A DNA stretch of 64,000 nucleotides from an uncultured Gemmatimonadales bacterium (GTDB taxonomy: Bacteria; Gemmatimonadota; Gemmatimonadetes; Palauibacterales; Palauibacteraceae): positions 416,001 through 480,000 of the forward strand of contig CAWANJ010000009.1 of NCBI GenBank assembly GCA_963783385.1. Reading direction: 5' to 3'. The notes beneath the pieces were generated by a model. That model saw only the letters and a program-made list of their open reading frames with translations. It made no database searches and had not been told where the DNA came from. The position numbers and the translations under genes are program-made. Of this stretch, positions 25,608 to 59,641 are shown one piece after another. Position 1 is the stretch's first letter. The number at the start of each line of letters is the position of its first letter.

Positions 25608-26096
25608 TCAGCGGGACGAGAGCATCTCGAGGGTGTGAAGTTCGACGAGGGTGACCTCCAGCGCCCTGAGGACGCCCCGGCGCACCGGGGCCGACAGGCC
25701 CCGCCCGGGACCGAAGCGGGCGGCCTCGATTCCGACGACCACGAGCCGGTCGGGGAGCTGTCCCAGGACCTTCCCCAGCGCGATGATCTCCCCGAGTCCC
25801 AGGCCGTGGCTGGACGGGTGGGGCGGGGAGACGGGGAGGACGTCGCCAAGAGCGTCCAGCCGGTGCACGGTCCCCGGCGGGGCCCCCGAACACACGGCGT
25901 CAATGACCACGGCCAGAGGTGCGCCCGTCCACAGGTCGAGGAGATCGGCCTCCCGGCCCGGGAGAGCCGCCACCCGAACGTCGGGCGGCGCCAGGAGGGC
26001 CAGGAGGCGGACCGCCTCGAGGCCGGCAGCGTCGTCGCTCCGATCCGGCGACCCGAGTCCGACGACGAGCGCGCGCCCCGAGCTCGACCCGGGCAT
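25608..26096 (-). CDS. Hydrogenase maturation protease
   Basis: VVGLGSPDRSDDAAG, VVIDAV, SSHGLGL; follows the large subunit. Confidence 0.88.
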   Translation of the reverse strand: MPGSSSGRALVVGLGSPDRSDDAAGLEAVRLLALLAPPDVRVAALPGREADLLDLWTGAPLAVVIDAVCSGAPPGTVHRLDALGDVLPVSPPHPSSHGLGLGEIIALGKVLGQLPDRLVVVGIEAARFGPGRGLSAPVRRGVLRALEVTLVELHTLEMLSSR

Positions 26097-26098
26097 GC

Positions 26099-27415
26099 TC
26101 ACGGCTCGCCGATCTCCAGCCGCAGAAAGTGGGTGGCGCACGAGATGCACGGGTCGTAGCTGCGCACCACCCGCTCGCAGGCGTGCTCCAGCTCCGGCCG
26201 CGGCAGGGCGAGCGACCGCTGGACGGTGGCCCGCAGGTCCTCCTCAATGACGCGCTGGTTCTGGGAGGTGGGCGGGATGATGCGCGCCACCCGGATCGCC
26301 CCGTCCTTGTCAAGGTCGTACCGGTGGTACAGGAGCCCGCGGGGCGCTTCGGTGCAGCCGTAGCCGGTGGCCTCCCGCGGCTCGACGCTCACGGCCGGGC
26401 GCGCGGGGGGCTCGTAGCTGCCGAGGATGCGCAGCGCCTCCTCGCACGCGTGCACGACTTCCACGGCTCGCACGACGATGCTCCGGTGCGGGTTCCGGCA
26501 CGCCGGCCCGAGCCGGGCATCCCTCGCCGCCTCGAGGGCGACGGGCGAGAGGCGCTCCGAGTTGAGCGCGTAGCGGGCCAGGGGGCCCGTGAGATAGGCG
26601 CCGCGCTCCTCAATGTGGGCCTGGAGGGCGTGAGTGTAGTCCGCCTGCTCCTCCGTGACGTGCGCCTCGAACTCGGATGGTTCAATGTCCAGTCCCGCCG
26701 TGGAGGCCGGGCGGCCCTCGTACATGGGGTACCGGTCCGGGTGGCGCAGCGCCACCAGCTCGCACTCCAGCTCCGACTCCGGCGCCTCGAAGCCCGCCAC
26801 CCAGCGCACGGTGTCGAGCGCGGCGTCTCTGGCCCGGAGGACCCGCTCCCTGAGCGCCGCCAGCTCGTCGAGGGCCGGCAGATGGAAGAAACCGCCCACC
26901 CGCACGTTCACCGGGTGGATCTCGCGGCCTCCCAGCAGGGTCACGATCTCGTTTCCCAACTTCTTGAGATCCAGACCTCGGCGCACCGCGTCCGGATGTT
27001 CCCGGGCCATGGCGATTCCGTCCTCGTAGCCCAGGAAGTCCGGAGCGTGCAGCATGTAGATGTGGAGGGCGTGGCTCTCGATCCACTCACCGCAGTAGAG
27101 CAGCCGGCGGAGCTCGCGGACCGGCTCGTCCACGCTCACGCCGCATGCGTCCTCCATCGCGCGGCACGCGCTCATCTGGTAAGCCACGGGGCAGATGCCG
27201 CAGATGCGTGCCGTGATGTCGGGCGCCTCGCTGAAGTCCCGGCCCCGGAGGAGCGCTTCGAACAGGCGCGGAGGCTCGAACAGCCTGAGCTGCGCCTCCA
27301 CGACCTGGCCTCCTTCCACCCGGACGTACACGGACCCGTGCCCTTCCACGCGGGCCAGACCGTCGATCCGGATCGTCCGGGTCCGGCGATCGGAGCGGCC
27401 GGGACGCTCAGCCAT
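26099..27415 (-). CDS. Group 3b [NiFe]-hydrogenase large (alpha) subunit
   Basis: ARVEGHG, L1 [16 protein letters not shown]2 [10 protein letters not shown] plus a short cleavable tail. Confidence 0.95.
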
Positions 27416-28190
27416 CGGACTCCGCCTCCGCCTGCGCCCGGAAGGCGGGCGCGTCGGCGTTGTAGGTGCGCAGGGCCCGGACCACCTCCTCCGGGGTCGC
27501 CCCCAGCCGTTCGCGCCACCACCCGGCCAGGGAGGGCAGGTTGGGCGTTTCCTTGGGACCGAAGCAGCCGTAGCAGCCGCGATCATAGGCGGGGCACAGC
27601 GCCCCGCAACCGGCCTGCGTGACCGGGCCGAGGCAGGGGACCCCGCGGGCGACCATGACGCATGCCGTGCCGCGGCGCTTGCACTCCACGCACACGGAGT
27701 GGGGGCGGACGGCGGGATCCCGGCCGGCCAGGAAGGCCCCGATCACCTCCAGGAGCTGGGTCTTCGAGATCGGACAGCCGCGCAGCTCGAAGTCCACCGG
27801 CACGTGATCGGAGATGGCGGTCGAGGTGGCCAGCGTGTCGATGTACTCCGGCCGAGGATAGACCGCCGAGACGAAGGAGTCCCGGTCGCCGAAGTTGCGG
27901 AGCGCCTGGATCCCGCCCGCCGTGGCGCAGGCTCCAATGGCCACCAGGTGGCGCGAGACGCGGCGGATCCGCTTGAGCTTCTCGACATCCTCGGTGGACG
28001 TGATCGAGCCTTCGACCAGGGACAGGTCGTAGGGCCCGCGCAGCACGGCGCTGCTCGCCTCCGGGAAGTGGGCCAGCCTGACCCGGTCGGACAGGGCGAG
28101 GAGCTCGTCCTCGCAATCCAGCAACGTGAGCTGGCAGCCATCGCACGAGGCGAACTTCCACACGGCGAGCTTCGGCATCGGACGTGGCAT
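27408..28190 (-). CDS. Group 3b hydrogenase small (delta) subunit
   Basis: [47 protein letters not shown]. Confidence 0.93.
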
Positions 28191-28191
28191 G

Positions 28192-29058
28192 TCAGAGCTC
28201 CCGGATCCGGAGCAGCGGCTCGATCCGGGACAGGGAATACACCGGCCCGTCCCGGCAAATGAGCTCCCCGCCCAGCTGGCAGTGCCCGCACAGCCCGATG
28301 CCGCACCGCATGTTTCGCTCGAGCGAGACGTAGGTGCGCTCCGCCGGAAGCCCGCGGCGGCCCAGCTCCCGGCCGACGTACCGCATCATGACCTCGGGGC
28401 CGCACAGCAGGGCCACGCAGTCCTCCGGCTCAATGGGTGCGTAATCGAGAAGCTGGGTCACCACGCCCACGTGGCCCCTCCACGGGCCGACGGCGTGGTC
28501 CACCGTGATCTCGACCTCCACGTCGTAGCGGGCCCTCCAGCGCCGGAGGTCGTCGGCGAACACGAGGCCGCGGGGGGAGCGCGCGCCGTACAGGAGGCTT
28601 ACGCGACCGAAGCGGCTCCGCTCCCCCAGGATCCGGCAGAAGGCCGACCGGAGGGGGGCGAGTCCGACGCCGCCCGCCACGAGCAGCACGTCGTGCCCCG
28701 CCGCCTGGTCGATCGGCCACGCGTTCCCGAACGGTCCGCGCACGCCGAGGAGGTCGCCTCGTCGGAGCGCGCAAAGCGCGCGCGTCACCGCACCCACCGC
28801 CCGCACCGTGTGCGCGAGGAGGCCGGGCGGCCCCGTCGGATCCCCGCTGATCGAGATGGGAGCTTCGCCGACCCCGAACACGTACAGCATGTTGAATTGC
28901 CCGGGGGCGTACGTTCTCTGCCCGTCGCCGTCCACGGGTTCGAGCTCCAGCGTCCAGGTGTCCGGCGTCTCCTGGCGCGTTCGACGCACCCGGTGGATGG
29001 CCGGCACCATCGGGTCCGGAGGGGCCGCGTCGTCGGGCGTCCGCACGAGGTCGCTCAT
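28192..29058 (-). CDS. Group 3b hydrogenase gamma subunit (FAD/NAD(P)-binding, 2Fe-2S)
   Basis: [43 protein letters not shown]. Confidence 0.92.
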
Positions 29059-29078
29059 CGAGGGGTCTCTTCGGCCCG

Positions 29079-29546
29079 CTACCGCGCCCGCACGCCGCCG
29101 TACACGTCCAGGAGCTGGACGCTGGCCGCCTCGAGGCGCTGCATCATCACGCCGGTCACCCGCTTGAGGAGGTCGTAGCCCAGGCGGGCGTCGGCCTCGC
29201 ACTTGTCCCTCAGACAGGCCCCGTCGAACACCAGCGCGCGTGTGAGCTCCAGGGCCCTCGCATCGAAGACCCAGCGGTAGGGCGGCATGAGCCAGGAGAA
29301 GCCCAGCACCTCGCCCTCGCCGGCGCTGAGGACCGTGATCGTCCCTCGGGCCGGATCGTGGACCTCCACCACCGCGCGACCGCTTCGCAGGAGGTAGAAG
29401 CGATCGGCCGGCTCGCCCTCGCGGAAGAGGTAGTCCCCGGCCTCGAATCGCGCGTTGGTCCCGCAGCCCGCGATCAGGGCCAGGTCCTTCGGCTCCATGC
29501 CCGCGAAGAATGGATGTTCTGCCAGGAGCTGCTCGAGTCCCTTCAA
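29079..29546 (-). CDS. Stand-alone cyclic-nucleotide-binding domain protein
   Basis: [37 protein letters not shown]; no HTH; TTG start with GGAGG. Confidence 0.85.
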
Positions 29547-30703
29547 GGATCACCTCCGATTCCGGATGTCTCCCGGTGCTCGGGCGCGTCGCCGGGCCAG
29601 GCGTCCGGGCTCCGCCGCAGCGCCGCGACCTCCTCCGTCAGGTCGATGCCCACCGGGCACCAGGTGATGCACCGGCCGCAGCCCACGCACCCCGAGCTGC
29701 CGAATTGATCGAACCAGGTTCCGAGCTTGTGGGTCAGCCACTGCCGGTACCGGGACGCGGCCGACTGGCGGACGCTGCCGCCGTGAATGTGGGAGAAGTC
29801 GGTGTGGAAGCAGGAGTCCCAGCGTCTCCAGCGCTCGGCCACCCGGCCCGACAGGTCGCCGGTGTCCTCGACGCTGGAGCAGAAGCAGGTGGGACACACC
29901 AGGGTGCAGTTACCGCAGGTGAGGCAGCGGTCGGCTACGTCCTTCCAGCGGGGATGCTCCAGGGTCTCTGCCAGGAGTTCCCGGACGCCGTCCGTGTCCA
30001 GGGTCCTCCCCATCCGTCCGGCCGCCCGCGACACCACCGCTGCCGCCGCCGCCTCGTCGGCTGCCGATGCCTCCCGGCGGGGCAGCCGCTCGAGCACACG
30101 CTCGCCCCGGCCGGAGCCTGCCGTCACGGTGAAGTGGGAGCCGTCGGGATCCAGGATCTCGGTGAGCGCGAGGTCGTAGCCTCCGTCGACGCCCGGTCCG
30201 GCGCCCATGGACGAGCAGAAGCACGTCCCGCCGGGATCTCCGCACTGGACCGCCACCAGGAAGGCCGCCTCCCGGCGGGCCCGGTACGTGGGGTCGGCGA
30301 AGGCACCTGCCAGGAGCACCCGGTCCTGGATTCGGATCGCATGGAGCTCGCAGCCCCGGACGCCGATGAGCGCGTAGCGCGGCTCGGGCTCCTCGTCCGT
30401 ACGGAGCTCCAGTCCGTCTTCCGTCCTCCGGGCGCTCCACAGCCGCCGCTTCGGCGGATACAGGTAGCGCTTCCAGGCCTCGGGGCCGAGGGCGTAGCCG
30501 AACAGGGCCCGGTCCCCGCGTCTCTCGAGACGATAGCGGCCGCCATCCTGCTCCTCGGTCCAGCCCTCGGGGAGGTCGGAGGTCGACCGGATCGAGCCGT
30601 AGCCGATCGTTGCGTCCCGGACGGTGGGTCCGACCAGGTCGTAGCCCTCGGCCACCAGGTGGGCGAAGAGTGCGTCGAGTCCCTCGCGTTCTATGACCTG
30701 CAC
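29543..30703 (-). CDS. Group 3b hydrogenase beta subunit (4Fe-4S dicluster, AsrA-like)
   Basis: [41 protein letters not shown]. Confidence 0.92.
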
Positions 30704-30740
30704 GTCACGCTCCTCGTGTGGCTGCCGGCAATCGTGCGGT

Positions 30741-31253
30741 TCAGGCGTCGCCGCCCGGCCCCGCCTGCGCGTGCTCCTGGAGGCGCTGTTGGATCTGCTC
30801 CATGAGCTCGAGGCAGCCATCGGTCTGGTCGGCCATGTTCCGGAAGCGCTCTTGCAGCTGCTCCATGCTGCGGTTCATGACCGGGTCGTCGCCGAAGCCG
30901 GGCTCGCCGGCCATCTGTCGCAGCTGTTCCATGCTCCGGGTCATCTGCCGGACCATGTCCCCGGTCGAGCCCAGCATGTCCTGGAGCTGCCGGTGTTGCC
31001 GCAGCTGGTCGCGGGCCTGGTCCCGCGTGCGCAGCTGGTCCATCTGCTGCGACAGTTGCCGGTCCATCTGGTGGATGCGGTCCTGGAGCTGGTCCATGCG
31101 CTGCATCGTCTGCTGCATGCTCTGCATCTGCTGCTGCATCTGCTGCTGCATCCGGCCCATCTGCTGACCGTGACCCTGCGCGAGCACGGTGCCCGGAACC
31201 ACGAGGCCGAGGCCGATGAGCAGCGCGGCGGCGAGCGTCTTCGTGCCTTTCAT
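30741..31253 (-). CDS. Secreted Gln/Met-rich coiled-coil protein
   Basis: Signal peptide ending VLA, followed by repeated MQQQ/MxQL heptads. Confidence 0.75.
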   Translation of the reverse strand: MKGTKTLAAALLIGLGLVVPGTVLAQGHGQQMGRMQQQMQQQMQSMQQTMQRMDQLQDRIHQMDRQLSQQMDQLRTRDQARDQLRQHRQLQDMLGSTGDMVRQMTRSMEQLRQMAGEPGFGDDPVMNRSMEQLQERFRNMADQTDGCLELMEQIQQRLQEHAQAGPGGDA

Positions 31254-31311
31254 GGTGAATTCCTCTCGTCGCGCGCCCCTCGGCGCGCCTGGTGGGTCGT
31301 TCGTCGGGCGC

Positions 31312-32304
31312 TCACAGCCTCGTCGTCCAACCGGCCGACACGGAGACGTCGGGGCTGGACTCGGACAGGCCGATTGTCACGCCCACGCTGAGGCTCCGGC
31401 CCTCCCCGAGCCGGTAGCCAATGGCCCCGCCCACGTCGAGCGGGGGGTCCGTTCCGGCCACGATGCGGCTGTAGCCCGACAGGGACGCCAGGAGCGAGAC
31501 CCTGTCGGCGAGCCGATGGCCGATGCCCACGGAGTAGCTCACGGGGTTCTGGAGCGGCAGGTCGGGCAGGTCGCCCAGCACCCAGTAGCCCACCTCCCCG
31601 AACAGCAGGGTCGAGCCCAGGCGACCGGCGACCGACAGGGCGCCGCCCCCGTCCCACTCCCCCGTGCCGAAGCCTCGCGCGGGGTCGGCGAGCGGCGCCT
31701 TGACCTCGCCCGAGAGCGTCACGCTGACGTCCCCGCGGCCGCGCGGGACCAGGTCGACGCTCACCCGGAGGGTCGGGTCGCCCACGCCGACCTGGTCGAA
31801 GGAAGCCGTGTCGGGCAGCGTCACGCCCGGGCGTGTCGACATGGCCCGGGGGAGCCGGGCCCCCGGCACCGGCGCGGCGCCGCCCCCGCCTGCGGCGGAG
31901 CCGGCGGCCAGCGCTCCGGCGAGGCCCCCGCGCGCGTCCATGCCCATACCCGGTCCTCCGTGCCCGCGCCGCTGCAGCGAATCCCCGACGGCTCCCCCCT
32001 GCGGCCCGCCCGTGGGAACGCCGCCGCCAGTCGTATAGGAGATCCAGGGCGTGCTCTGGTAGATGAGGGGGAGGTTCGCGGAGAGCCGAAGGCGTCCGCT
32101 GCGCACGGCGAGGCCCGTGAACAGGTAGGCGGAGTTGGTCCGCTCCGTGAACAGGTACTTGCCGGTCGCGAACTGGAGAGAGCCCGAGTACGTGACCTCC
32201 TGGGCGGCTGCCGGGCGCGCGGCCACGAGGAGGAGCAACGCCGCGGCGTCCCGGAGCGTGGGCCGGGGAAGGGAGCGAAGGGCGGAGACGATCCTCTGGC
32301 TCAT
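31312..32304 (-). CDS. Putative outer-membrane beta-barrel protein
   Basis: Signal peptide (AAA-Q), amphipathic strands, [18 protein letters not shown] pattern, C-terminal strand VSAGWTTRL. Confidence 0.7.
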
Positions 32305-32498
32305 CGTTGATCGGCCGGATCGGGGGACGTGGACGAGCCCGGCATCCACGGGGCGCGCGTGCTCGACCCAAAGGTGCAATCTGGGCGTGTCGACCGCGCC
32401 GATCTGTCGGGGGGCTTCCGGGTCCGACGGTGGGGAAAAGCACGGCGGAGCGTGTCGGAGTCTTCCGCCGCACGTCCGGGTGCATGAGGCTCCGTCCC

Positions 32499-32660
32499 AT
32501 GGGCGACGTGGACGTGCACGCCCTCCGGTCGCTGGACCTCGACCTGCCCACCTCGGGCTCGATCGGGTTCGAGGATCACGACATCACGGAGGCCGACGAA
32601 GCCGAACTGACCCGCTTCCGGCGCGAGCACGTGGGCTTCGTGTTCCAGTTCTACGGACTA
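32499..32660 (+). pseudogene. Internally deleted remnant of a LolD/MacB-type ABC ATPase
   Basis: [16 protein letters not shown] joined directly to [21 protein letters not shown]; Walker A and the C-terminus are missing. Confidence 0.7.
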
Positions 32661-32905
32661 CCAGGCCGGCGTGCCGGTGCTGGAGCGCGGCCGAGCGGGC
32701 GCGCCCCGGCACGGCGATCCCCTACACGGCGCGCCGGCATTCCCCCGATAGTGGGCGCGGGGGTACGCCCGGGACATTGCACGAGGACGGAGGAGGTACG
32801 TCCGCACGCTTGTTCAGGGCCCGCCGGGGGCCCGTGGCCCCTGGGCCGTCGGAGCGCCGCGAGACTGCAGTCGTCGAGTCGACTCCCCGCAGCGAGGATG
32901 CGACC

Positions 32906-33490
32906 ATGCAGACCGCTCCCGAGATCAGCTTCCGGAACGTCGAGCCCACGCCCGCCCTCCGGGCCCAGATCGACGAGGAGATCGGACGGCTCGAGCGCTT
33001 CTTCGACGGGATCACCAGCTGCCACGTCATGGTGGAGGTGCCCCATCCCCGGCACAGGGAGGGCAACCTCTATCACGTCCGGGTCGAGGTGCGGGTGCCG
33101 GGCACCGAGCTGGTCGTGAGCCGCCAGCCGCCGACCCAGGAGCAGCGCGAAGAGCTGCGGGTCGCCGTGACCGAGGCCTTCGACTCCATGGCACGGCAGA
33201 TCGAGGACTACGTCCGCAAGCTCCGGGGCCAGGTCAAGACGCGGGAGGAGCTTCCCCATGGCCGCGTCGTGCGCCTGTTCGCCTACGAGGGCTACGGGTT
33301 TATCGAGACCCCCGACGGGGACGAGTACTACTTTCATCGGAACAGCGTGCTGGGCGGCGACTTCGACCGCATGGAGATCGGCAGCCCGGTGCGGTTCTCG
33401 GTGGAGGAGGGGCTGGAGGGTCCCCAGGCGAGCACCGTCCGCCTGCAGGGCGGTCGAGCCGTACCGGCGGGTGAGGGCCCCCTGGAGTGA
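32906..33490 (+). CDS. HPF/RaiA ribosome-associated protein fused to a cold-shock domain
   Basis: [35 protein letters not shown] (HPF) plus [20 protein letters not shown] (CSD RNP motifs). Confidence 0.9.
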
Positions 33491-33556
33491 CGCTCGGACG
33501 GCCGTCGCCGGCCCGTCGACCGGCGGAGCGATCCCCGAGGCGGGCGCGGAGACTCG

Positions 33557-33690
33557 CTACGGACGCGTGGTGCCCCGCGACCTCCTCTCCACCTCCCAGG
33601 CTTCTTCGAGCAGGGCCCGGACCTCGTCGTCGGTGAGCTGCGGATAGTCCAGGTACCACACGCCGATGGCGAAGAAGGCGTCGGGCCGGA
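33557..33690 (-). pseudogene. C-terminal remnant of a putative phosphoribosyltransferase (Rv0571c-like)
   Basis: Minus-strand translation PDAFFAIGVWYLDYPQLTDDEVRALLEEA..stop; no start codon or N-terminal part. Confidence 0.65.
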
Positions 33691-33743
33691 CCGGGCTGTG
33701 GGAGATTCCCCGCGGGTCCCCGACGTCCGACTGGCGTCGCGCG

Positions 33744-33774
33744 GGCGGAACTTAGGGCGGAACTTAGAGGAACT
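33744..33774 (+). repeat. Tandem 12-bp repeat GGCGGAACTTAG x2 plus a partial GGAACT upstream of rtcB
   Basis: 33744-33755, 33756-33767 and 33769-33774. Confidence 0.8.
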
Positions 33775-33795
33775 CCGGGCCGATGGTGGGCGCCG

Positions 33796-35265
33796 ATGAA
33801 CGAGAATCTGGTACCCGGGACGCTGGAGCTGGAGAGGCTCGACGACCACCAATGGCTCCTGCCCCGCCGGGGGGCCATGCGGGTCGACGGGATCGTCTAC
33901 GCGGACGATCGTCTCATCGAGGACGTCCGACACGACGAGTCCCTCCGTCAGGTGGCCAACGTCGCGTGCCTCCCGGGAATCGTCGGCCGTTCCATTGGCA
34001 TGCCGGACATCCACTGGGGCTACGGCTTTCCGATCGGGGGCGTGGCGGCCTTCGACCCGGACGAAGGCGGGGTCGTGAGCCCGGGCGGCGTCGGCTACGA
34101 CATCAACTGCGGGGTCCGCCTCCTGCGCTCCGACCTCTCCGAGGCCGACCTCCGCCCACGGCTCGAGCCCCTCATGAACCAGGTCATGCGGGACGTTCCC
34201 TCGGGGGTCGGCTCCCACCACCGCGGCGGCGGGCTGCCCGTCGAGGAGCTGCGGTCCGTCCTCACCGGCGGGGTCCCGTGGGCGGTGGCGTCCCGGGGCT
34301 GGGGCGTGCCGGCCGACGTGGCCCGGATCGAGAGCGGCGGCGTGCTCCCGGGGGCCGATCCGGGCAGGGTGAGCGCCCGGGCCCTGGACCGCGGCCGCGA
34401 CCAGCTCGGGAGCGTCGGCTCGGGGAACCACTTCATCGAGGTGGGCTACGTCGACCGGCTGTTCGATGAGCCCGCGGCGGCCGCCCTCGGGCTGGAGATG
34501 GGGACGGTCACGGTGCTCATCCACTCGGGCTCCCGGGGGCTGGGCCACCAGGTGTGCACCGACTACCTGGAGGTGATGCTGGACGCGGCCGGGGACCACG
34601 GCATCCGGCTCCCCGACCGGCAGCTGACCTGCGCGCCGCTCGACTCGCCCGAGGCCCGGGACTACCTGGCCGCCATGGCGGCGGCGGCCAACTTCGCCTT
34701 CGTGAACCGGCAGCGCATGGCCCACCTGGTCCGGGGCGCGTTCGAGCGTGTGTTCGAGCGGCCCTGGGAGGCGCTGGGCCTGGGGCTCGTCTACGACGTG
34801 GCCCACAACAACGCCAAGTGGGAGACGCACGTCGTCGAGGGTCGCGAGCGGCGGCTGTGCGTGCACCGGAAGGGGGCGACCCGGGCCTTTCCCCCGGGCC
34901 ACCCGGAGCTGGATCCCACCTTCGCCGGAATAGGACAACCTGTCCTAATTCCGGGCGACATGGGCCGCTACTCCTACGTGCTGGTCGGCACCCGGCAGGC
35001 GTTCGAGGAGACGTTTGGTTCGTGCTGCCACGGCGCCGGCCGCCGGATGAGCCGGACGCAGGCCCGCAAGGTCGCGGGGGGACGGGCGCTCAGGCGGGAG
35101 TTCCGCGAGCGGGGCATCGTGGTGCGGGCGGCGTCGCGGGCGACGATCGCCGAGGAGCTTCCGGAAGCGTACAAGGACGTGGCCGACGTGGTCGACGTCG
35201 TCCACCGGGCGGGCATCGGGCGCAAGGTGGCTCGCCTCCGGCCGATGGGCGTGCTCAAGGGTTGA
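33796..35265 (+). CDS. rtcB: RNA-splicing/repair ligase RtcB (archaeal-like long form)
   Basis: MPDIHWGYGFPIGGV, GVGYDINCGVR, GSGNHF, IHSGSRGLG, HNNAK, HRKGATRA, CHGAGR, AYKD. Confidence 0.97.
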   Translation: MNENLVPGTLELERLDDHQWLLPRRGAMRVDGIVYADDRLIEDVRHDESLRQVANVACLPGIVGRSIGMPDIHWGYGFPIGGVAAFDPDEGGVVSPGGVGYDINCGVRLLRSDLSEADLRPRLEPLMNQVMRDVPSGVGSHHRGGGLPVEELRSVLTGGVPWAVASRGWGVPADVARIESGGVLPGADPGRVSARALDRGRDQLGSVGSGNHFIEVGYVDRLFDEPAAAALGLEMGTVTVLIHSGSRGLGHQVCTDYLEVMLDAAGDHGIRLPDRQLTCAPLDSPEARDYLAAMAAAANFAFVNRQRMAHLVRGAFERVFERPWEALGLGLVYDVAHNNAKWETHVVEGRERRLCVHRKGATRAFPPGHPELDPTFAGIGQPVLIPGDMGRYSYVLVGTRQAFEETFGSCCHGAGRRMSRTQARKVAGGRALRREFRERGIVVRAASRATIAEELPEAYKDVADVVDVVHRAGIGRKVARLRPMGVLKG

Positions 35266-35463
35266 GCCGCCGCCCGCGCCGGGAGGGTGCCCGCGCCTCC
35301 CGCCGACGGCCTCGACTACGCGGCATCGTCCGTTCGGCCTACCTCCTCTGGCCCCTTCCTCCCCACGGTGGGGAGGGGGATGGCCCTACAGACGGGGGCA
35401 CGCCCATGGATGAGCTTCCGTAATCGACTATGGACGAGACGTCCGCGGACGAAACGGAGGACC

Positions 35464-35661
35464 ATGAACGTACCTGCAATCCTGCTGAACAGCGGCTGGT
35501 TGGGGCCCGTGGCCCGGCTCGACGAAGACGACCCTCAGGGCGGTCCGCCCCATGGAGGGCCCGACGCGGACGGAGCATCCGATCCGCGCGCGCCCGACGA
35601 CCCGGAGCGGGAGCCGGAGTCCCCGCCGGTCGTCTCGGCGCCCGGCAAGCTCACCTGGTGA
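35464..35661 (+). CDS. Possible small acidic/Pro-rich protein
   Basis: SD GGAGG before ATG 35464; 65 aa; no recognisable domain. Confidence 0.3.
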   Translation: MNVPAILLNSGWLGPVARLDEDDPQGGPPHGGPDADGASDPRAPDDPEREPESPPVVSAPGKLTW

Positions 35662-40049: not shown

Positions 40050-40060
40050 ACGAGTCGGGC

Positions 40061-44045: not shown

Positions 44046-44050
44046 GTTCC

Positions 44051-52849: not shown

Positions 52850-53938
52850 TCAGTCCGTGGTCGAAGGCCGCTCGGAACGGGCCGGCACGCTGACGATCAC
52901 GCGCGCGCCCGCCCCGGGACCCGACACCACGGCCAGCGATCCGCCCACGGAACGCGCGCGCTCGCGCATCCCCAGCAGGCCCAGGCCGCCGCCCCCGTTC
53001 GTGCTCTCCAGCTCCGGCTCGAAGCCCCGTCCATCGTCGACGACGTTGAGCGTCACGCTGCCATCCCCGGTCTCGAGCTCGAGCCGGATGCGGCCCGCGT
53101 CGGCGTGTCGGACGGCGTTCACGAGCGCTTCCTCGGCCACGCGGTACATCGCCAGGGCGACCTCCTGCTCGAGCTCGGGCTCCGGCCCCTTCACCTCGAA
53201 CTCCACGGGCAGGCCCGCCTGGTCCGAGACGGCCCTCGCGTGGGCTCGCAGCGCCGGAACGAGCCCGAGCTCGCCCAGCTCCGGGGGGTGGAGCCGACGC
53301 GCCAGGCGGCGGACGAGCTCGAGGCTCTCGGCCGTTTCATCGCGGAGCCGTTCGAGATGACGGGCCCCTTCCACGCATGACGGCTCGAGGTCCACGGCCT
53401 TCCGCGCCAGCTCGACCCTCAGGAGGAGCGCGGCCAGGCGCTGGGCCGTGTCGTCCTGGAGCTCGGCCGCCAGGCTGCGCCGCTCGCGCTCGGCCGCCTC
53501 GAGCACACCCACGCTGAGACGGCGGAGTACGCGCTGGCCCAGGACCAGGCGTTGGAGCATGTCGTTGAACACCTGGATGAGGCGGCGCATGCCAGGATCC
53601 GCCATCAGGGAGCGGGGCGCTCGGGCTTCCAGGTCCCCGGCGTGGACGCGCTCGGCGGTCCGCTGGAGCCCGGACAGGGGCGACAGGGCCCAGCGCACGA
53701 GGATCCAGTTGATGGGCACGCACACCGCCAGCCCCACCCCGGCGGCCAGCCCGGCCGCGAACACCGGATCATGCTGGATCCGGGCCAGGAGCACGGCGAG
53801 GAGCGCGGTTCCGGCCACGAGGGCGCCGTTGGCTCCCAGGATCTTGAACGGGAGGGGAAAGCGAAGGAGCCGCGACGTCAGCCGGCGCAGGGTGGATGGG
53901 CCCGGCTCGGCACGTTTCGAAGACAGAACTTCAGGCAT
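52850..53938 (-). CDS. HAMP-HisKA_3-HATPase sensor kinase-like protein lacking the phospho-acceptor His
   Basis: Two TMs, HAMP, H-box ELQDDTAQ, EALVNAVRH, DDGRGF, GLGLLGMRER. Confidence 0.85.
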   Translation of the reverse strand: MPEVLSSKRAEPGPSTLRRLTSRLLRFPLPFKILGANGALVAGTALLAVLLARIQHDPVFAAGLAAGVGLAVCVPINWILVRWALSPLSGLQRTAERVHAGDLEARAPRSLMADPGMRRLIQVFNDMLQRLVLGQRVLRRLSVGVLEAAERERRSLAAELQDDTAQRLAALLLRVELARKAVDLEPSCVEGARHLERLRDETAESLELVRRLARRLHPPELGELGLVPALRAHARAVSDQAGLPVEFEVKGPEPELEQEVALAMYRVAEEALVNAVRHADAGRIRLELETGDGSVTLNVVDDGRGFEPELESTNGGGGLGLLGMRERARSVGGSLAVVSGPGAGARVIVSVPARSERPSTTD

Positions 53939-54069
53939 GCAGCCCAAGCTCGATGCCGGCGAGGGAGCGGTCTGTAAGGACAAACCGGGTCCACAATGTG
54001 GGGAGATCCCCGCCGCGTTCCGCGGCGGCCGTGGAAGCCCGGTGCCGGTCGTGCTACATTGCGTCGCCC

Positions 54070-55155
54070 ATGGCCGATACGCACGCCAGTACAGCCGACG
54101 CCGGGGCCGACGGGACGGTCCACGACAGCCTGTTCACGGCCGCGCAGTACAGGACCGTGTTCGAGGCGGCGCCCGACGGCATCATCATCGTGGATGGGCG
54201 TGGGCAGATCCGCGACGTGAACCCGAGAGCGGAGGCGCTGTTCGGGTATGCGCGCGACGAGCTGGTCGGGCAGCCGGTGGAGACGCTGGTCCCGGAAGCC
54301 GCCCGCGCCATGCACGAGCGGGACCGCGTGGCGTTCGTGGAGCAGCCGCAGGCGCGGCCGATGGGGATCGGCCTCGAGCTTCGAGGCCGGTGCAAGGACG
54401 GCGGGACGTTTCCGGTGGAGATCAGCCTCAGTCCGCTGCGCACCGCGGATGGTATCCTGGTGATCAGCATGATCCGGGACGTGACCCAGCGGCGACGCCT
54501 TCGGCAGTTCGGCTTCGGCGCCCTGCGGGCCGCGGAGGAGGAGCGGCGCCGGATCGCCCGGGAGCTTCACGACGATACGGCGCAGCGGTTGGCGGCGATC
54601 CTGCTGCGCCTGCGCCTGCTGTCCGCCGAGCGCACGGGCCCGGATCGAGACCGCCTGCTCGAGGAGATCCGGGCGGAGCTGGTCGAGGCGGCGGAGGCGG
54701 TGCGGAGGATCGCGCGCGGCCTTCGCCCCCCGGCGCTCGAGGACGTGGGAGTGGCCACCGCGATCCGGGCGCACGTGCGGACCCGTTTCTCGGAGGGGGA
54801 GCCCAGCGTGGAGATGGATCTCGCCCCGGTGGATGAGGTCCTGGAGGAAGAGGCCAAGCTCGTGTTGTATCGCATCGTGCAGGAGGCGCTCTCCAACGTG
54901 GAGCGGCACGCCGAGGCTTCGCGCGTGATCATCCGGATCAATGTCTCCGGGGACCACGTGCTGGCTGTCGTGGAGGACGACGGTCGCGGCTTCGATCCCC
55001 GGCAGCCGTCCCGCGACGACGGCCGGGGGCTGGGCTTGCTGGGCATGAGGGAGCGTGCCACCCTCGTCGGGGGGCACGTCGAGGTCGAGAGCGAGCCGGG
55101 CGCGGGAACCCGCATCCGTCTGCAGATACCGCTGTACGAGGGAGGAGCCACGTGA
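54070..55155 (+). CDS. Cytoplasmic PAS-HisKA_3 sensor histidine kinase
   Basis: PAS (FEAAPDGIIIVD..VNPRAEALFGY..KDGGTFPVEISL), ELHDDTAQ, EALSNVERH, DDGRGF. Confidence 0.93.
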   Translation: MADTHASTADAGADGTVHDSLFTAAQYRTVFEAAPDGIIIVDGRGQIRDVNPRAEALFGYARDELVGQPVETLVPEAARAMHERDRVAFVEQPQARPMGIGLELRGRCKDGGTFPVEISLSPLRTADGILVISMIRDVTQRRRLRQFGFGALRAAEEERRRIARELHDDTAQRLAAILLRLRLLSAERTGPDRDRLLEEIRAELVEAAEAVRRIARGLRPPALEDVGVATAIRAHVRTRFSEGEPSVEMDLAPVDEVLEEEAKLVLYRIVQEALSNVERHAEASRVIIRINVSGDHVLAVVEDDGRGFDPRQPSRDDGRGLGLLGMRERATLVGGHVEVESEPGAGTRIRLQIPLYEGGAT

Positions 55156-55808
55156 GCCAGGCCATCACCGTGCTGCTGGCGGACGATCACGCGATGTTCA
55201 GGTCGGGCCTGAAGGCGCTCCTCGAGGGTGAGGCTTCCATCGAGGTGATCGGCGAGGCCGCCACCGGCGACGAGGCCGTCGACCAGGCGCGGCGGCTGCG
55301 GCCGCAGGTCGTGGTCATGGACCTGTCAATGCCGGGTTCGGACGGCCTGGAGGCCACGCGCCGCATCACCGCGCTGGAGCTGGACACCAACGTGCTCGTC
55401 CTCACCGTGCACGCCGAGGAGGAGTACCTGGTGCCCGTCGTGCAGGCGGGCGCCAGCGGCTACCTCACCAAGACGAGCGCGGACCGTGACCTCGTGGAGG
55501 CCATCCGGGTCGTGGCCCGCGGCGAGGTCTACCTGCCGCCCCAGGCCACGAAGCTGCTGCTCCAGGAGTACAAGGCGGCCGAGGCCGACGAGGACACGAG
55601 CAAGCTGCAGCAGCTCAGTTCCCGTGAGCAGGAGGTCCTGGCGCTGACCGCGGAGGGCTTCAGCTCGCGCGAGATCGGCAAGAAGCTGTTCATCTCGCCG
55701 AAGACGGTGGACACCTACCGGTCCCGGATCATGAAGAAGCTGGGGCTGGACCACCGCTCCGAGCTCGTCCGCTTCGCCCTCCGGGTCGGTCTCCTCAAGG
55801 AGGTGTAG
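55152..55808 (+). CDS. NarL/NreC-family response regulator
   Basis: ADDH, VMDLSMP, GYLTK and LuxR HTH LSSREQEVL..ISPKTVDTYRSRIMKKL. Confidence 0.95.
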   Translation: MSQAITVLLADDHAMFRSGLKALLEGEASIEVIGEAATGDEAVDQARRLRPQVVVMDLSMPGSDGLEATRRITALELDTNVLVLTVHAEEEYLVPVVQAGASGYLTKTSADRDLVEAIRVVARGEVYLPPQATKLLLQEYKAAEADEDTSKLQQLSSREQEVLALTAEGFSSREIGKKLFISPKTVDTYRSRIMKKLGLDHRSELVRFALRVGLLKEV

Positions 55809-55908
55809 GCCGCGTCACCGGGACGCTCGGACGTGGAGGCCTGGAGGCCGCCGCGGCGGGTCTCGGACTGCGCCGCCTGGCCACGTACACGGAACCTCGG
55901 AGCTGACC

Positions 55909-56853
55909 ATGCTCGCGATCCGACACGTTCTCTACCCCACCGACTTCTCGGAGTCGGCCGTCGCCGCCCTCCCGCTGGCCGCACGACTCGCCCGGGCGCA
56001 CGGAGCCGATCTCCACGCCCTTCACGCCCTCGTGCTCCACGCCGCCAATGCGGTCGAGGCCGACAAGCTCTTCCCCAAGATGGAGGATGCCGTCGGCGAG
56101 CTGGACCGTTGGGCGGAAAGCCGCATGGAGGCCCACCTGGGCAAGCACGACGTCAGCGACCTCGTGGTGCACGAGGCCCGGGAGCGGGGCTTCTCGGCGG
56201 GCGCCGTGATCCTCGAGTACGCCGAGGCGTTCGACATCGACCTCATCGTCATGGGTACGCACGGGCGCCGCGGCCTCCGGCACCTGCTGATGGGGAGCAT
56301 CGCCGAGGAGGTGGTGCGGCGCTCGTCCTGCCCGGTGATCACGGTCCGGGAGCGGCCCCGGCTCGCCGACGCGCCGTGGCCCTCCCACCTGGTGGCACCG
56401 GTCGACTTCTCCGAGGCTTCCGACCTCGCCCTCGCCTACGTGAGGGAGCTCGCCGCCTCGAGCGGCGCCAGCGTCGACCTCGTGCACGTCATCGAGCCGG
56501 TGACCGTGCCGGACCCCTACATTACGGGCACGGCGGGCTTCGCGTTCGACGTCGAGGCGGTGCGCTCCAACGTGCAGGATGCGCTGGAGGAACGTGCCGC
56601 CTCGGTCCTCGGCGAGGACGTCCCGTGCGGGATCCACATCGACGTGGGGCGCCCGGCCGCGATGATCTCCGCCTTCGCCGAGGAGCGGGGGGCCGACCTG
56701 GTGGTGATGGCCAGCCACGGCCGAACCGGCCTGGAGCGCGCGCTGATCGGCAGCGTGGCGAGCGGCGTGATCCGGCGGGCCTCACCCCCCGTGATGATCG
56801 TCAAGCCATCTGGGCGTCAGCTCTTACCGTCTTCGACCTCCGAAACCACTTGA
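55909..56853 (+). CDS. Tandem universal stress protein
   Basis: PTDFS..DLIVMGTHGRRG..GSIAEEVVR; PVDFS..DLVVMASHGRTG..GSVA. Confidence 0.93.
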   Translation: MLAIRHVLYPTDFSESAVAALPLAARLARAHGADLHALHALVLHAANAVEADKLFPKMEDAVGELDRWAESRMEAHLGKHDVSDLVVHEARERGFSAGAVILEYAEAFDIDLIVMGTHGRRGLRHLLMGSIAEEVVRRSSCPVITVRERPRLADAPWPSHLVAPVDFSEASDLALAYVRELAASSGASVDLVHVIEPVTVPDPYITGTAGFAFDVEAVRSNVQDALEERAASVLGEDVPCGIHIDVGRPAAMISAFAEERGADLVVMASHGRTGLERALIGSVASGVIRRASPPVMIVKPSGRQLLPSSTSETT

Positions 56854-59641
56854 GGAGCTGCCCGGCCACGGTCGGCAGGACCCCGAGCCCGAAGATCACG
56901 GCGGCATCCCCGGCCGAAGGGACCTGCAGCCTGAGGACGTCCCGGAGGCCGGGCAGGGCGAGGGCGAGGGCGAGGAGGCCCAGCGACAGGAGACCGGCCG
57001 CCACCGCGAAGCGGTTCCGGAAGAAGCCGCCACTCCCGAGGATGCCCCCCACGCTCCGCGCGTTCCCGACGTGCAGCACCTGGGCGACCGCGAGGGTCAG
57101 GAAAGCCCGGGTAACGGCGGCGGCGTGCGTCCCTCCTCCGCTCGGGTCCCAGAAGAAGGCTGCCAGGGTGGAGCCCGTGATGAGGAGGGCGTAGAGCCCC
57201 ACCGAGCGCAGCAGGTGGGCGGAGAGGATGCCGGCGTCGGGGTCCCGCGGCGGACGGCTCATGATCCCGGCCTCGGCTGGCTCGAAAGCGAGCGCCAGAG
57301 CGGGGAAGGTGTCCGTCACCAGGTTCAGCCACAGGATCTGGAGGGGCAGGAGCGGCAGCGGCGAGCCCGCGAGACTGGCCACGAGGAGGACGAGGACCTC
57401 GGCCGCGTTACAGCTGAACAGGAAGAACACGAACTTGCGGACGTTGTCGAAGATGACGCGTCCCTCTTCGACGGCCGCGGCCACGGTCCGGAACCGGTCG
57501 TCCCGCAGCACGATGCCCGCGGCCTGCTTGGCCACGTCCGTGCCGCGGCGGCCCATGGCCACGCCAATGTCGGCCCGCCGCAGGGCCGCGGCGTCGTTGA
57601 TCCCGTCCCCGAGCATGGCCACCACGTCGCCCCCGCGGCGCAGGGCTTCCACGATGCGGTACTTGTCCTCGGGGCCGATGCGACTGTACACGGCCACGTG
57701 GGGAGCGCGGCGCGCGAGCGCGTCATCGTCCAGCCGGGCCAGGTCGCGGCCGTCGAGCGTCTCCTGCCCGCCCTCCAGCATGCCGAGGTCCCGTGCCACC
57801 GCCTCGGCCGTGAGACGCTGGTCCCCGGTGAGCATGAGGGTGCGGAGACCCGCCGCCCGGAAGCGGGCGATCGTCTCCTTCACGCCGGGAGCGGGCGGGT
57901 CCACGAGCCCCACGAGCCCGAGGAAGACGAGGGGACCCGTGGAGGGCTCGGCGGGGATGCCGTCCGGGGCGGGCTGGTCTGCGCTCGTTCCGGCGGCGTC
58001 CGAGCGGCGCGGCAGATCGGGCGCCCCGCCGTGGGCGAGGGCCAGCACCCGGAGGCCACGGCGGGCCAGCTCGGCGTTAGCTGCCAGGAGACGCTCCCGG
58101 TCTGCCGCCCCAAGCGGCCGGACCCGCTCCCCGTCTCGCCAGCGATCGCACGCCTCGATCACGGACTCGGGCGCCCCCTTCACCATCACCTCTACGCCGG
58201 CTCCGTCCGTCCGGCCGCCGGCCTGGTGGAAGGTGGCCATGTAGCGGCGCTCGGAGCTGAACGGGAGCTCGGCCACGAGCGGGTGCCGGGCGCGGAGCTC
58301 CGCGGGCTCGAGCCCCGCCTTCCGGGCCGCCACCAGCAGGGCGGCCTCCGTGGGATCGCCGCGGATCGACGGTCCGTTCTCGGAGTCGACCACCTCGGCC
58401 CGGTTGACGAGGGCTCCGACGACCAGTGCGAGGCGGGCGGCCGGGTCGGCGAGCGGATCGACGGCGCGCCCCGCGGTCCGGAAGGTTCCCTCGGAAACGT
58501 ATCCCCGACCGGTGACTTCGTACTCGCGGGCGGGCGTCCACAACACCGTCTCCGTCATTTCGCCGGCGGTGAGGGTCCCGGTCTTGTCGGTGCAGACCAC
58601 GGTCGCGGCGCCGAGGGCCTCGACCGCCGGCAGCCGCCGGACGACCGCGTTGCGCGCCGCCATGCGCCGCATCCCCACGGCGAGGGCGGCGGTGGCCACG
58701 ACCGGGAGTCCCTCCGGAACGGCGGCGACCCCGAGCGCCACGCCGGCGAGCAGCATCTGGCCCAGGGGCGCGCCCTGGGCGAGGCCGATGGCGGTGACCA
58801 GGGCCGCGACGGCCAGGGTGATCCACACCATGCGCTCGCCCAGCGCGTCGAGCCGCCGCTCGAGGGGCGCTTTCTCCCGCTTGGTCTCCAGGATGAGGCG
58901 TCCGACGCGGCCGACCTGTGTCGCCTCGCCGGTGGCGGTCACCACGGCCTCTCCGCTGCCGGCCGTGACCGTCGTACCCCGGTAGACCATGTCGACCCGG
59001 TCCGGGAGAGGCGTGGTCTCGGGCAGGACCGCCTCCGCCTCCTTGTCCACCGAGGCCGACTCGCCGGTGAGGGAGGCCTCGTCCAGCTTGAGCCCCGTGA
59101 CGGCCAGGAGCCGTGCGTCGGCCGCGACGGCGTCCCCCGCCTCCAGGAGGAGGAGGTCCCCGGGCACCAGCTCGCGGGCCGGTATCGAACGCTTCTCCCC
59201 GCCTCTGCGGACCCGGGCCGAGGGGGCCTCGAGTCGCAGGAGAGCCTCCATCGCGCGCGCCGCCCGCAGCTCGGTCACCAGGCCGAGAAGCGTGTTGATG
59301 AGGAGGACCACGCCGATGGCCGCGGCGTCGAGAGCGTCGCCCAGGAGGAAGGCCGCGGCGCCGGCGGCCACCAGGAGGTAGACGACCACGCTGCGCAGCT
59401 GGTCGCCGATGATCCTCCACAGGGGCAGGGGAGGGGCCTCGAGACCGCCGTTCGGCCCGATCCGCTCGAGCCGCCGGCGCGCCTCCTCCTCGCCGAGGCC
59501 GTCCGGACCCGAGCCGAGGGCGCGGGCCACCTCGGACGCGGGCCGCGCGTGCGGCGCCGCGATCAGCAGGCGGAGGGCGGCAGGATCCGCGTGGGCCTTC
59601 CCGGCCGGCGGTGGGTCCCCGTTCGGCACGGCGGAGGTCAT
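56801..59641 (-). CDS. Type II cation-transporting P-type ATPase (CtpF/PacL-like)
   Basis: LTGES, VPEGL, DKTGTLT, KGAPE, TGD, GDGINDAAAL, WLNLVTD. Confidence 0.95.
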   Translation of the reverse strand: MTSAVPNGDPPPAGKAHADPAALRLLIAAPHARPASEVARALGSGPDGLGEEEARRRLERIGPNGGLEAPPLPLWRIIGDQLRSVVVYLLVAAGAAAFLLGDALDAAAIGVVLLINTLLGLVTELRAARAMEALLRLEAPSARVRRGGEKRSIPARELVPGDLLLLEAGDAVAADARLLAVTGLKLDEASLTGESASVDKEAEAVLPETTPLPDRVDMVYRGTTVTAGSGEAVVTATGEATQVGRVGRLILETKREKAPLERRLDALGERMVWITLAVAALVTAIGLAQGAPLGQMLLAGVALGVAAVPEGLPVVATAALAVGMRRMAARNAVVRRLPAVEALGAATVVCTDKTGTLTAGEMTETVLWTPAREYEVTGRGYVSEGTFRTAGRAVDPLADPAARLALVVGALVNRAEVVDSENGPSIRGDPTEAALLVAARKAGLEPAELRARHPLVAELPFSSERRYMATFHQAGGRTDGAGVEVMVKGAPESVIEACDRWRDGERVRPLGAADRERLLAANAELARRGLRVLALAHGGAPDLPRRSDAAGTSADQPAPDGIPAEPSTGPLVFLGLVGLVDPPAPGVKETIARFRAAGLRTLMLTGDQRLTAEAVARDLGMLEGGQETLDGRDLARLDDDALARRAPHVAVYSRIGPEDKYRIVEALRRGGDVVAMLGDGINDAAALRRADIGVAMGRRGTDVAKQAAGIVLRDDRFRTVAAAVEEGRVIFDNVRKFVFFLFSCNAAEVLVLLVASLAGSPLPLLPLQILWLNLVTDTFPALALAFEPAEAGIMSRPPRDPDAGILSAHLLRSVGLYALLITGSTLAAFFWDPSGGGTHAAAVTRAFLTLAVAQVLHVGNARSVGGILGSGGFFRNRFAVAAGLLSLGLLALALALPGLRDVLRLQVPSAGDAAVIFGLGVLPTVAGQLLKWFRRSKTVRADAQMA

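Follow-up and report, generated by a model that had tools for sequence, protein, structure and literature searches.

The locus studied here raises the question of whether a set of stress, fermentation and hydrogen genes lying close to a two-component system in an uncultured bacterium of the phylum Gemmatimonadota is held together by one regulator, and if so which genes that regulator controls. The window, meaning the whole 64,000-nucleotide stretch that was analysed, is C9:416001-480000 of genome G000 (assembly GCA_963783385.1, contig CAWANJ010000009.1), or 1.8 % of that genome, and coordinates given below without a contig are window positions. A sequence-only reading of the window had proposed a single DosR-like dormancy regulon under the response regulator at 55152-55808, in which a group 3b hydrogenase, an HPF-cold-shock-domain fusion (HPF-CSD), a phosphoribosyltransferase remnant, RtcB, universal stress proteins (USPs), a CBS protein, a Zn-dependent alcohol dehydrogenase (Zn-ADH) and a CtpF-like ATPase would couple low oxygen to H2 release, ribosome hibernation and RNA repair. 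All of the gene families named in that proposal were recovered with Pfam and NCBIfam at or near the places where it had put them. The answer that we favour, at a probability of about 0.6, is that a two-component regulon of low-oxygen type, functionally analogous to DosR, FixLJ and NreBC, has its control locus and several of its targets in the window. In the best-supported model the conserved core consists of the kinase, the regulator, a USP and the CBS protein, and the wider regulon serves mainly respiration and energy metabolism (two hydrogenases, pyruvate:ferredoxin oxidoreductase (POR), cytochromes, a V-ATPase and, in relatives, N2O reductase), with Hsp20 and HPF-CSD included in some genomes.

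The G000 assembly comprises 3.54 Mb in 9 contigs at 71 % G+C and is 92 % complete. The window stretch was found in salt-marsh and sediment metagenome runs, and full-length relatives of the PAS kinase were found in metagenome-assembled genomes (MAGs) of Gemmatimonadota, Gemmatimonadales and Gemmatimonadaceae. Since high G+C yields many spurious open reading frames (ORFs), genes were called by third-position G+C (GC3); they were then named with Pfam and NCBIfam. Relatives are coded G001, G002, G003 and so on, with f1 for the window's own family and f2 for its sister family; G003 and G001 are congeneric with G000, and G017 and G006 belong to other genera. Genome-wide comparison covered sites with at most two mismatches in 25 genomes, plus selected loci, and counts across these relatives are not independent because the relatives are kin.

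The sensor kinase (54070-55155, + strand) is predicted by Pfam to join a PAS domain to a HisKA_3 transmitter. In comparison with PDB structures, the PAS domain matched FixL haem-PAS domains at E values of about 1e-16 to 6e-13 with the proximal His in register, as would be expected of a haem-binding domain of the FixL kind, and DosP/EcDOS more weakly. The transmitter matched VraS, DesK, DevS and DosT, the matches from DevS and DosT being to their ATP-binding domains only. No GAF domain was detected in the kinase by Pfam, the PAS domain being found instead, and an NreB-type Fe-S sensor is excluded because the PAS domain has a single Cys (one in residues 1-145) where four are needed. Both the proximal His of the PAS domain and the His of the H-box (ELHDD) were kept in 15/15 kinase orthologues. 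The kinase gene overlaps by 4 nt the gene for a NarL-family response regulator with receiver and GerE domains (55152-55808, +). The PDB scores of this regulator (VraR 4e-41, NarL 2.5e-34, DevR 1.8e-32 and FixJ 6e-19, with 8e-10 for the FixJ DNA-binding domain) indicate a generic NarL-family protein, no closer to DevR than to VraR or NarL. Orthologues at least 60 % identical to it were present in 16 of the 24 f1 genomes and in none of the 16 f2 genomes.

Divergent from the kinase lies a gene for a membrane-bound homologue with HAMP-like and HisKA_3 domains (52850-53938, −). Its H-box reads ELQDD against ELHDD in its partner, so the phospho-acceptor His is replaced by Gln, and HisKA_3 and HATPase_c are still detected by Pfam, the pattern by which a pseudokinase is recognized. 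The same column is occupied by a residue other than His in 7/13 homologues (Q in five, Y in one and L in one). The sensor architecture put forward in the sequence-only reading, a FixL-like PAS kinase and a pseudokinase beside a NarL-type regulator, is thus upheld at the level of predicted domains.

A candidate operator was found by comparing the kinase–regulator loci of relatives, 18 of which were fetched. It is a 19-bp palindrome, TGTGGGGA-N3-TCCCCACA, with a second, promoter-proximal element, CCCGACAGAC(G), at fixed offsets from the palindrome centre. In the relatives' loci the palindrome stands in the kinase/pseudokinase intergenic region and again just behind the regulator. Using a position weight matrix (PWM) built from 16 sites in these loci, sites of at least 11.5 bits were found upstream of 8/15 PAS-kinase and 9/13 pseudokinase homologues. 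G000 has 11 sites of at least 18 bits, against 1, 0 and 0 in three Markov controls. With at most two mismatches, the plain pattern gave 34 sites in 15 f1 relatives against 1 control match, and 3 sites in nine f2 genomes, which lack the regulator orthologue. Among 21 named Gemmatimonadota loci retrieved independently, 17 carried a site of at least 15 bits, located at the kinase 5′ end in 12 and within 100 bp after the regulator in 4. Outside the phylum, only 4/58 loci had a site of at least 18 bits. Single sites of that strength occur by kinase–regulator homologues in L122, L131, L138 and L142 (Dehalococcoidia, Thermomicrobiales and Chloroflexota MAGs), the regulators of which are 45–58 % identical to the one in the window; the operator may extend beyond the phylum Gemmatimonadota.

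The proximal element was recognized by its enrichment and by its spacing. GACAGAC was present in 26 of 102 oriented palindrome flanks, against 0.32 expected, and the offsets from the palindrome centre were 28 nt (nine cases), 49–52 nt (20), 64/65 nt (two) and 71/72 nt (two), in steps of roughly two helical turns. In G000 the composite CCCAC-N21-[G/T]ACAGA occurs 12 times, against 0–2 times at neighbouring spacings in the range N=5–43, with lesser peaks of 5 at N=44 and N=55. A TAnnnT hexamer was seen by eye 18 nt past the proximal element in several promoters, placing the element at the −35 position. Its core is the reverse complement of the palindrome half-site. The palindrome is accordingly read here, from these patterns, as a putative high-affinity dimer site, and the proximal element as a putative half-site for the same regulator.

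Several of these elements fall within the window. The divergent kinase/pseudokinase promoter (53970..54015) holds a palindrome at 53997-54015 and a proximal TTACAGAC directed toward the pseudokinase. A 19-bp palindrome of 23.1 bits (49455-49473, +) lies 132 nt upstream of the gene for the CBS-pair protein (49587-50135, +; Pfam CBS), with a proximal CCGACAGAC 52 nt from the palindrome centre and an identical site in G003. A composite element with N21 spacing (48129-48160, +) precedes an 82-aa ORF that is conserved in G002 (48322-48570, +) and a USP gene with a degenerate second USP-like half (48592-49545, +; Pfam Usp). Another composite element, with N20 spacing (35362-35392, +), follows RtcB and precedes a 65-aa ORF (35464-35661, +) that has a strong GGAGGA ribosome-binding site, is 89 % conserved in G003 and belongs to no Pfam family. 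Finally, an element directed into the operon that ends in the 3b hydrogenase (32403..32447, −) consists of a half-site ...CCCAC, 21 nt and GACAGA, the left half of its palindrome being degenerate; with its exact N21 geometry it is one of the 12 genome matches, and its layout parallels that of the kinase promoter.

These positions bear on the simplest alternative, namely that the stress and fermentation genes between 25.6 and 59.6 kb are neighbours by chance or through island-like acquisition, with no common control beyond autoregulation at the kinase locus. The gene set extends over 34 kb, and inside it about 12 kb (36052-48078) is taken up by unrelated genes encoding a PIG-L deacetylase, an ABC transporter, DUF4440 and BNR/sortilin proteins; this stretch, together with an ArsR gene directly upstream of the ATPase, weakens the idea of a single cluster. 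The patchy occurrence of the 3b hydrogenase (4/41 relatives) and of HPF-CSD (7/41) is consistent with separate acquisitions, and pseudogene fragments and a deletion described below mark the region as one in flux. Against this stand four to five regulon-type elements in 22 kb and three of the genome's 12 N21 composites inside the window (binomial P about 0.001), so that the clustering of regulatory elements in the window exceeds chance. The USP and CBS neighbours of the kinase are also kept across genera in differing arrangements. This alternative is regarded as very improbable.

A second alternative accepts the motif and assigns it to a different factor: the palindrome and proximal element would be owned by a Crp/Fnr-type regulator or an alternative sigma factor, with the two-component system as merely one target. 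The palindrome arms begin TGTG...CACA, like CRP-type sites, and the proximal element, with TAnnnT 18 nt beyond it, sits where a −35 box would be expected. However, in many genera the kinase–regulator pair has sites on either side, few copies of the motif occur in f2, where the regulator orthologue is missing, and no motif was found near the Crp/Fnr gene of G000. The odd 19-bp palindrome with its G4/C4 arms is also nearer to the DosR-box core (GGGAC-N4-GTCCC) and the NreC box (TAGGG-N4-CCCTA) than to the even-spaced Crp/Fnr sites. Ownership by another factor is therefore considered unlikely, though less so than the first alternative.

The assignment of the motif to the NarL-family regulator, and the low-oxygen regulon built on it, nevertheless have several observations to contend with. 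The regulator is tied to the motif by position and co-occurrence, and G000 does encode one clear Crp/Fnr-family protein that could own the motif; the proximal element could likewise serve an alternative sigma factor as its −35 box and not be a half-site. The palindrome at the window's kinase promoter is one base short between its arms and scores 15.4 bits, and the element of the hydrogenase operon scores 3.2 bits with its degenerate left arm. G001 has a 97 %-identical regulator yet no site at up to two mismatches, its local sites scoring 11.5–12.3 bits. Several high-scoring sites lie inside called ORFs (examples are C4:38011 and sites at the 5′ ends of genes for an S15 peptidase and of the beta-lactamase family), and the home-made GC3 caller makes gene starts uncertain and distances to start codons approximate. 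The haem-PAS domain may report NO, CO or redox state rather than O2. All of these weigh against the favoured reading.

To judge the extent of the regulon, motif positions in G000 and in its relatives were compared. In G000 the motif precedes POR and its neighbouring genes, a multihaem cytochrome/Rieske operon, a cupredoxin, FeoB (itself beside an unknown protein and a cytochrome c), an S15 peptidase, PntA, an HD-GYP protein and B12/radical-SAM enzymes, and it lies at a divergent pair formed by a group-1 [NiFe] hydrogenase and a V-type ATPase. The target families recurring across G003, G002, G006, G008, G009 and G011 were the nos operon, group-1 hydrogenase/V-ATPase, POR, PntA, multihaem cytochromes, S15 peptidase and CBS. 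As predicted from these sites, the strongest targets are respiratory and energy genes, plus the nosZ operon in relatives, and they had been overlooked in the sequence-only reading. The expectation in that reading of conserved synteny with the kinase locus held for part of the gene set. In the 21 named loci the kinase–regulator pair has as neighbours a USP (13/21), a CBS protein (10/21), NosZ (2/21) and a P-type ATPase (1/21), the USP and CBS genes often being divergent from the kinase with a site in between. HPF, RtcB and the 3b hydrogenase were found within 8 kb of the kinase in 0/21 of these loci, and ADH was its neighbour in 0/21.

The nosZ connection is one of position as well as of motif. 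In 7/18 fetched loci (G003, G002, G012, G018, G013, G008) a near-perfect palindrome comes after the regulator, and behind it lie genes in the order cytochrome c-nosZ-nosD-nosF-nosY, and in G002 a tandem USP begins 2 nt past nosY. In the window, blastn against locus L021 identified 55809..55908 (+) as the last ~100 nt of nosY, a deletion scar, and about 6.5 kb of the G003 arrangement (operator, cytochrome c, nosZ, nosD, nosF and nosY) is missing. The deletion is not a mis-assembly because contigs from 4 runs bridge the junction. A tblastn search of the 92 %-complete genome with NosZ, NosD and cytochrome c of G003, with positive controls in 7 loci, found no NosZ or NosD homologue elsewhere in G000.

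As a result of the deletion, the tandem-domain USP gene (55909..56853, +; Pfam Usp twice) now stands directly behind the regulator, at a distance of 100 nt. A PWM scan found no element of its own upstream, and a sigma-70 and terminator scan of 55500-56100 found nothing resembling a promoter or a terminator between the regulator and the USP. Since no such signal intervenes, the tandem USP is probably read through from the autoregulated kinase–regulator operon. In G001 the nos operon is likewise gone behind the regulator, with a longer nosY remnant of ~330 nt (L022, G001:C87, 7753-8085). This remnant, together with the lack of strong palindromes in that genome, may reflect stepwise loss and decay of the regulon.

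The predicted [NiFe] hydrogenase operon (25608..30820, −) comprises six genes, identified with Pfam and NCBIfam: a HycI-like protease (25608-26150), the NiFe large (alpha) subunit (26099-27586), the NiFe small (delta) subunit (27408-28190), an FAD/NAD gamma subunit (28192-29058), a cNMP-binding protein (29079-29546) and a Fer4_22 beta subunit (29543-30820), all on the − strand. For the four hydrogenase subunits the top NCBIfam models were those of the Pyrococcus sulfhydrogenase (ShyA-D/HydA-D; E values of 8e-82, 9e-48, 6e-48 and 3e-44), with scores below the equivalog cut-offs, and possession of four sulfhydrogenase-related subunits points to a group 3b enzyme. Upstream of these genes lie a Q/M-rich coiled-coil secreted protein (30741-31253, −) and an outer-membrane-like protein (31312-32304/32379, −), both with coding GC3 and weak Pfam matches only; neither adjoins the hydrogenase in G002. 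No terminator-like site was found by scanning inside the hydrogenase operon or between the 32403-32447 element and the hydrogenase genes. A hairpin lies past the operon end at 25560-25590, and the sigma-70 and terminator scans of 25400-36100 gave nothing useful besides it. In G002 the 3b hydrogenase has a 16.7-bit palindrome 128 nt upstream of its first gene, with a proximal element 52 nt from the palindrome centre, and at the distant 3b-like hydrogenase of G010 (35 % identity; this genome has no close orthologue of the regulator) no site was found. Between the hydrogenase-operon promoter and HPF-CSD there is also a short frame (32499-32660, +; 54 aa) that by eye looks like an internal fragment of a LolD/MacB-type ABC ATPase and has no Pfam match.

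In M. tuberculosis the DosR regulon contains USPs, a CBS protein, alpha-crystallin, an HPF-like protein, RtcB, CtpF and nitroreductases. The proposal that all the listed window genes form such a regulon was weighed gene by gene, beginning with the HPF-CSD gene (32906..33490, +; Pfam Ribosomal_S30AE and CSD, NCBIfam yfiA/HPF). It has upstream a degenerate variant of the element (32720..32751, +; CCCTACA ... CCCGATAG, PWM score 4.7 bits), the CCCGATAG part of which recurs upstream of HPF-CSD in G002 and G017, in the former as a proximal element. In G012 HPF-CSD is a clear motif target: a motif-rich divergent promoter separates it from an Hsp20/alpha-crystallin–CBS–OsmC operon, and this pairing of Hsp20, CBS and OsmC with HPF-CSD is a DosR-like effector set. 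A nitroreductase gene lies ahead of HPF-CSD in G003 and has a 12.2-bit site upstream. By contrast, the PWM scan found no element at HPF-CSD in G014 and G006, nor directly upstream of it in G003. The idea of a DosR-like effector set under a different sensor finds partial support in G012 and in the hydrogenase site of G002, with a membership that differs from the one proposed.

RtcB (33796..35265, +; Pfam RtcB, E 2e-167) stands beside HPF-CSD in G003, G017 and G006, and HPF-CSD, RtcB and either a phosphoribosyltransferase or an archease occur together in G003, G017, G006 and G008. Between the two genes in the window, the 64-aa ORF at 33557..33751 (−) is the C-terminal remnant of a phosphoribosyltransferase, as had been suggested: it is 67 % identical over 46 aa to the C-terminus of the intact Pribosyltran gene that G003 carries at the same position. 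This opposite-strand gene occupies the place of the archease in G000 and G003. In G017 the order is HPF-CSD, archease and RtcB (L061, G017:C8, 3907-6431; Pfam), and in G006 the order HPF-CSD-RtcB was read by eye (L063). No regulon element was found at the RtcB promoter, where the top PWM score was 5.2 bits. The sequence with this score, about 100 nt upstream of RtcB and also present in G003, was left uncounted since no proximal element accompanies it at the regulon offsets. A 12-nt unit, GGCGGAACTTAG, is repeated twice in tandem at ~33745-33770 (+), about 30–50 nt before the RtcB start.

The remaining genes of the proposed set lie around the kinase. A short-chain dehydrogenase/reductase (SDR; 50987-51754, +; Pfam) and the Zn-ADH (51809-52816, +; Pfam) had no element upstream in the PWM scan; an ADH orthologue adjoins the kinase in 5/18 fetched loci and shares the strand of the kinase genes in G018 and G013. 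The P-type ATPase (56801-59641, −) is by Pfam and NCBIfam of type IIA (Ca-ATPase-like). The case for it as a CtpF-like member of the regulon found no support: it is directly preceded by its own ArsR-family metalloregulator (59642-59962, −; Pfam), the ArsR/ATPase promoter has no regulon element, and the gene is missing from the corresponding position in G002. More generally, the DosR-box core was not enriched (6 matches in the window with at most one mismatch, against 11.6 expected, none of them at candidate promoters), and the remaining USP and Hsp20 genes of G000 had no motif. Taken together, an element was found at the kinase locus, the CBS gene, the USP operon and the 3b-hydrogenase operon and was absent from RtcB, SDR/Zn-ADH and the ATPase, with a degenerate copy at HPF-CSD. 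The presence of every family and the enrichment of regulon elements in the window speak for a single regulon; given the promoters without elements and the separation of HPF, RtcB and the 3b hydrogenase from the kinase in the named loci, a regulon comprising all of the listed genes is nonetheless judged unlikely, to about the same degree as ownership of the motif by another factor or slightly more so.

Some further features of the window were recorded. Next to the 65-aa ORF, a small zf-HC2 (anti-sigma-type zinc finger) protein is encoded at 35651-35911 (−; Pfam), with no adjacent sigma-factor gene. At 17275-21110 a two-gene unit, consisting of a CBS-pair protein (152 aa) and a CitMHS/ArsB-type transporter (448 aa; Pfam), is present in tandem duplicate, the copies at 17275-19093 and 19292-21110 lying back to back. 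An ORF at 4181-5335 (+) matches only the C-terminal winged-helix and beta-barrel domains of SelB in Pfam, and no GTPase domain was found in the called frame; its start may have been mis-called or the gene may be truncated.

The system was compared with the known oxygen-responsive two-component systems. It is like DosRST in having a predicted haem sensor kinase with a HisKA_3 transmitter, a NarL-family regulator, a G-rich palindromic candidate operator with an extra promoter-proximal site, and a USP encoded with the regulator. USPs, a CBS-pair protein, Hsp20/alpha-crystallin, an HPF-type protein and a hydrogenase are also found among its predicted targets across the family; the matching M. tuberculosis gene content is in part quoted in PMC3721108. 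It differs from DosRST in that its sensor would be a FixL-like PAS domain, whereas DosS and DosT are of the tandem-GAF type with the first GAF domain binding haem. Further differences are a 19-bp operator with other arms, a regulator scoring no closer to DevR than to VraR or NarL, respiratory genes as the strongest targets (nos operon, group-1 hydrogenase, cytochromes, POR and V-ATPase) and a diderm host in the Gemmatimonadota.

With FixL-FixJ the system would share a haem-PAS domain with the proximal His in the same place, a LuxR/GerE-type helix–turn–helix and control of micro-oxic respiration genes. In contrast to FixL, which has a HisKA (PF00512-type) domain, the window kinase has HisKA_3 (PF07730; DesK/NarX type), the conserved second kinase lacks the His, and no FixK-type relay was seen beside the locus. 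With NreB-NreC it would have in common a cytoplasmic PAS and HisKA_3 kinase and a NarL-type regulator over anaerobic respiration genes, and the NreC box resembles TAGGG-N5-CCCTA variants of the motif, the operator spacing being off by one base. NreB of staphylococci carries a four-Cys Fe-S cluster, unlike the single Cys and haem-PAS alignment of the window kinase. By predicted domains and operator, then, the system is none of the three, differing from DosRST in the GAF domains and operator, from FixLJ in the HisKA domain and from NreBC in the Cys cluster.

The lxa locus of Burkholderia cenocepacia is a further point of comparison. In PMC3721108 it is described as a cluster of low-O2-induced genes for six USPs, a Zn-ADH, an acetate kinase, a cation ATPase, alpha-crystallin, a nitroreductase and two-component systems, and its authors themselves liken it to the DosR regulon. 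The resemblance lies in a diderm, non-actinobacterial host with a DosR-like low-O2 set. The differences are that the lxa locus was proven by transcriptomics and deletion and lists Anr/CRP-type regulators, whereas the present system is a predicted one with a haem-PAS two-component pair, another motif and targets scattered genome-wide. Since the lxa locus has already been published (PMC3721108), a DosR-like low-oxygen locus in diderms is not a new concept.

The domains observed, the His residues kept among orthologues, the deletion, and the motif together with its spacing, its conservation and the genes around it would fit the following mechanism. The cytoplasmic kinase would sense O2 or another haem ligand via its FixL-like haem-PAS domain, and the unliganded haem would permit autophosphorylation on the His of the ELHDD H-box. 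The phosphate would pass to the NarL-family regulator, the phosphorylated dimer of which would bind the 19-bp palindrome. It would also contact the proximal element at 28, ~51 or ~72 nt from the centre, 18 nt before the TAnnnT −10-like hexamer, and activate transcription there. Binding of the motif by the regulator, O2 as the signal together with its direction, activation as opposed to repression, and the role of the pseudokinase are what we infer in this scheme. Within the window the targets would be both kinase genes and the regulator (autoregulation), the tandem USP by read-through, the CBS gene, the small-ORF–USP operon and, via a weaker element, the operon ending in the 3b hydrogenase. 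Outside it they would include the group-1 hydrogenase/V-ATPase pair, POR, multihaem cytochromes, cupredoxin, FeoB, PntA and radical-SAM enzymes. The cytochrome c-nosZ-nosDFY-USP operon that stands behind the regulator in relatives, and is deleted in G000, would be a target there as well. The His-less second kinase probably modulates signalling.

A more far-reaching proposal can be put forward tentatively, at somewhat less than even odds. It holds that an undescribed oxygen switch acts in this uncultured Gemmatimonadota family as the master regulator of clade-II nosZ, of a DosR-like stress set and of the hydrogenases, both uptake and NAD(P)-linked. In this switch a DesK/DevS-type transmitter bearing a FixL-type haem-PAS domain would work with a NarL-family regulator and a conserved partner kinase that lacks the His. 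Its DNA target would be a 19-bp palindrome in helical phase with a half-site that overlaps the −35 position. The window lineage would then be a natural nos-deletion mutant in which the switch was kept and a USP was rewired onto the regulator operon. The apparent novelty lies in the operator, in this pairing of sensor and transmitter alongside a conserved pseudokinase, and in the connection with clade-II nosZ in Gemmatimonadota.

According to PMC10581226, clade-II nosZ genes carried by Gemmatimonadota are among the most abundant in soils and sediments, and according to PMC9530729, N2O reduction in Gemmatimonas aurantiaca sets in after O2 depletion. In a literature search that left supplements outside its range, no paper was found that names the regulator behind O2 control of Gemmatimonadota N2O reduction, nor one that connects a switch of this kind with their clade-II nosZ. 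With a sensor, a regulator, an operator and targets named, O2 control of the Gemmatimonadota N2O sink becomes directly testable, and H2 metabolism likewise. The locus also suggests that, in a diderm phylum, another kind of haem sensor can control a DosR-like effector set of USP, CBS, Hsp20, HPF and hydrogenase.

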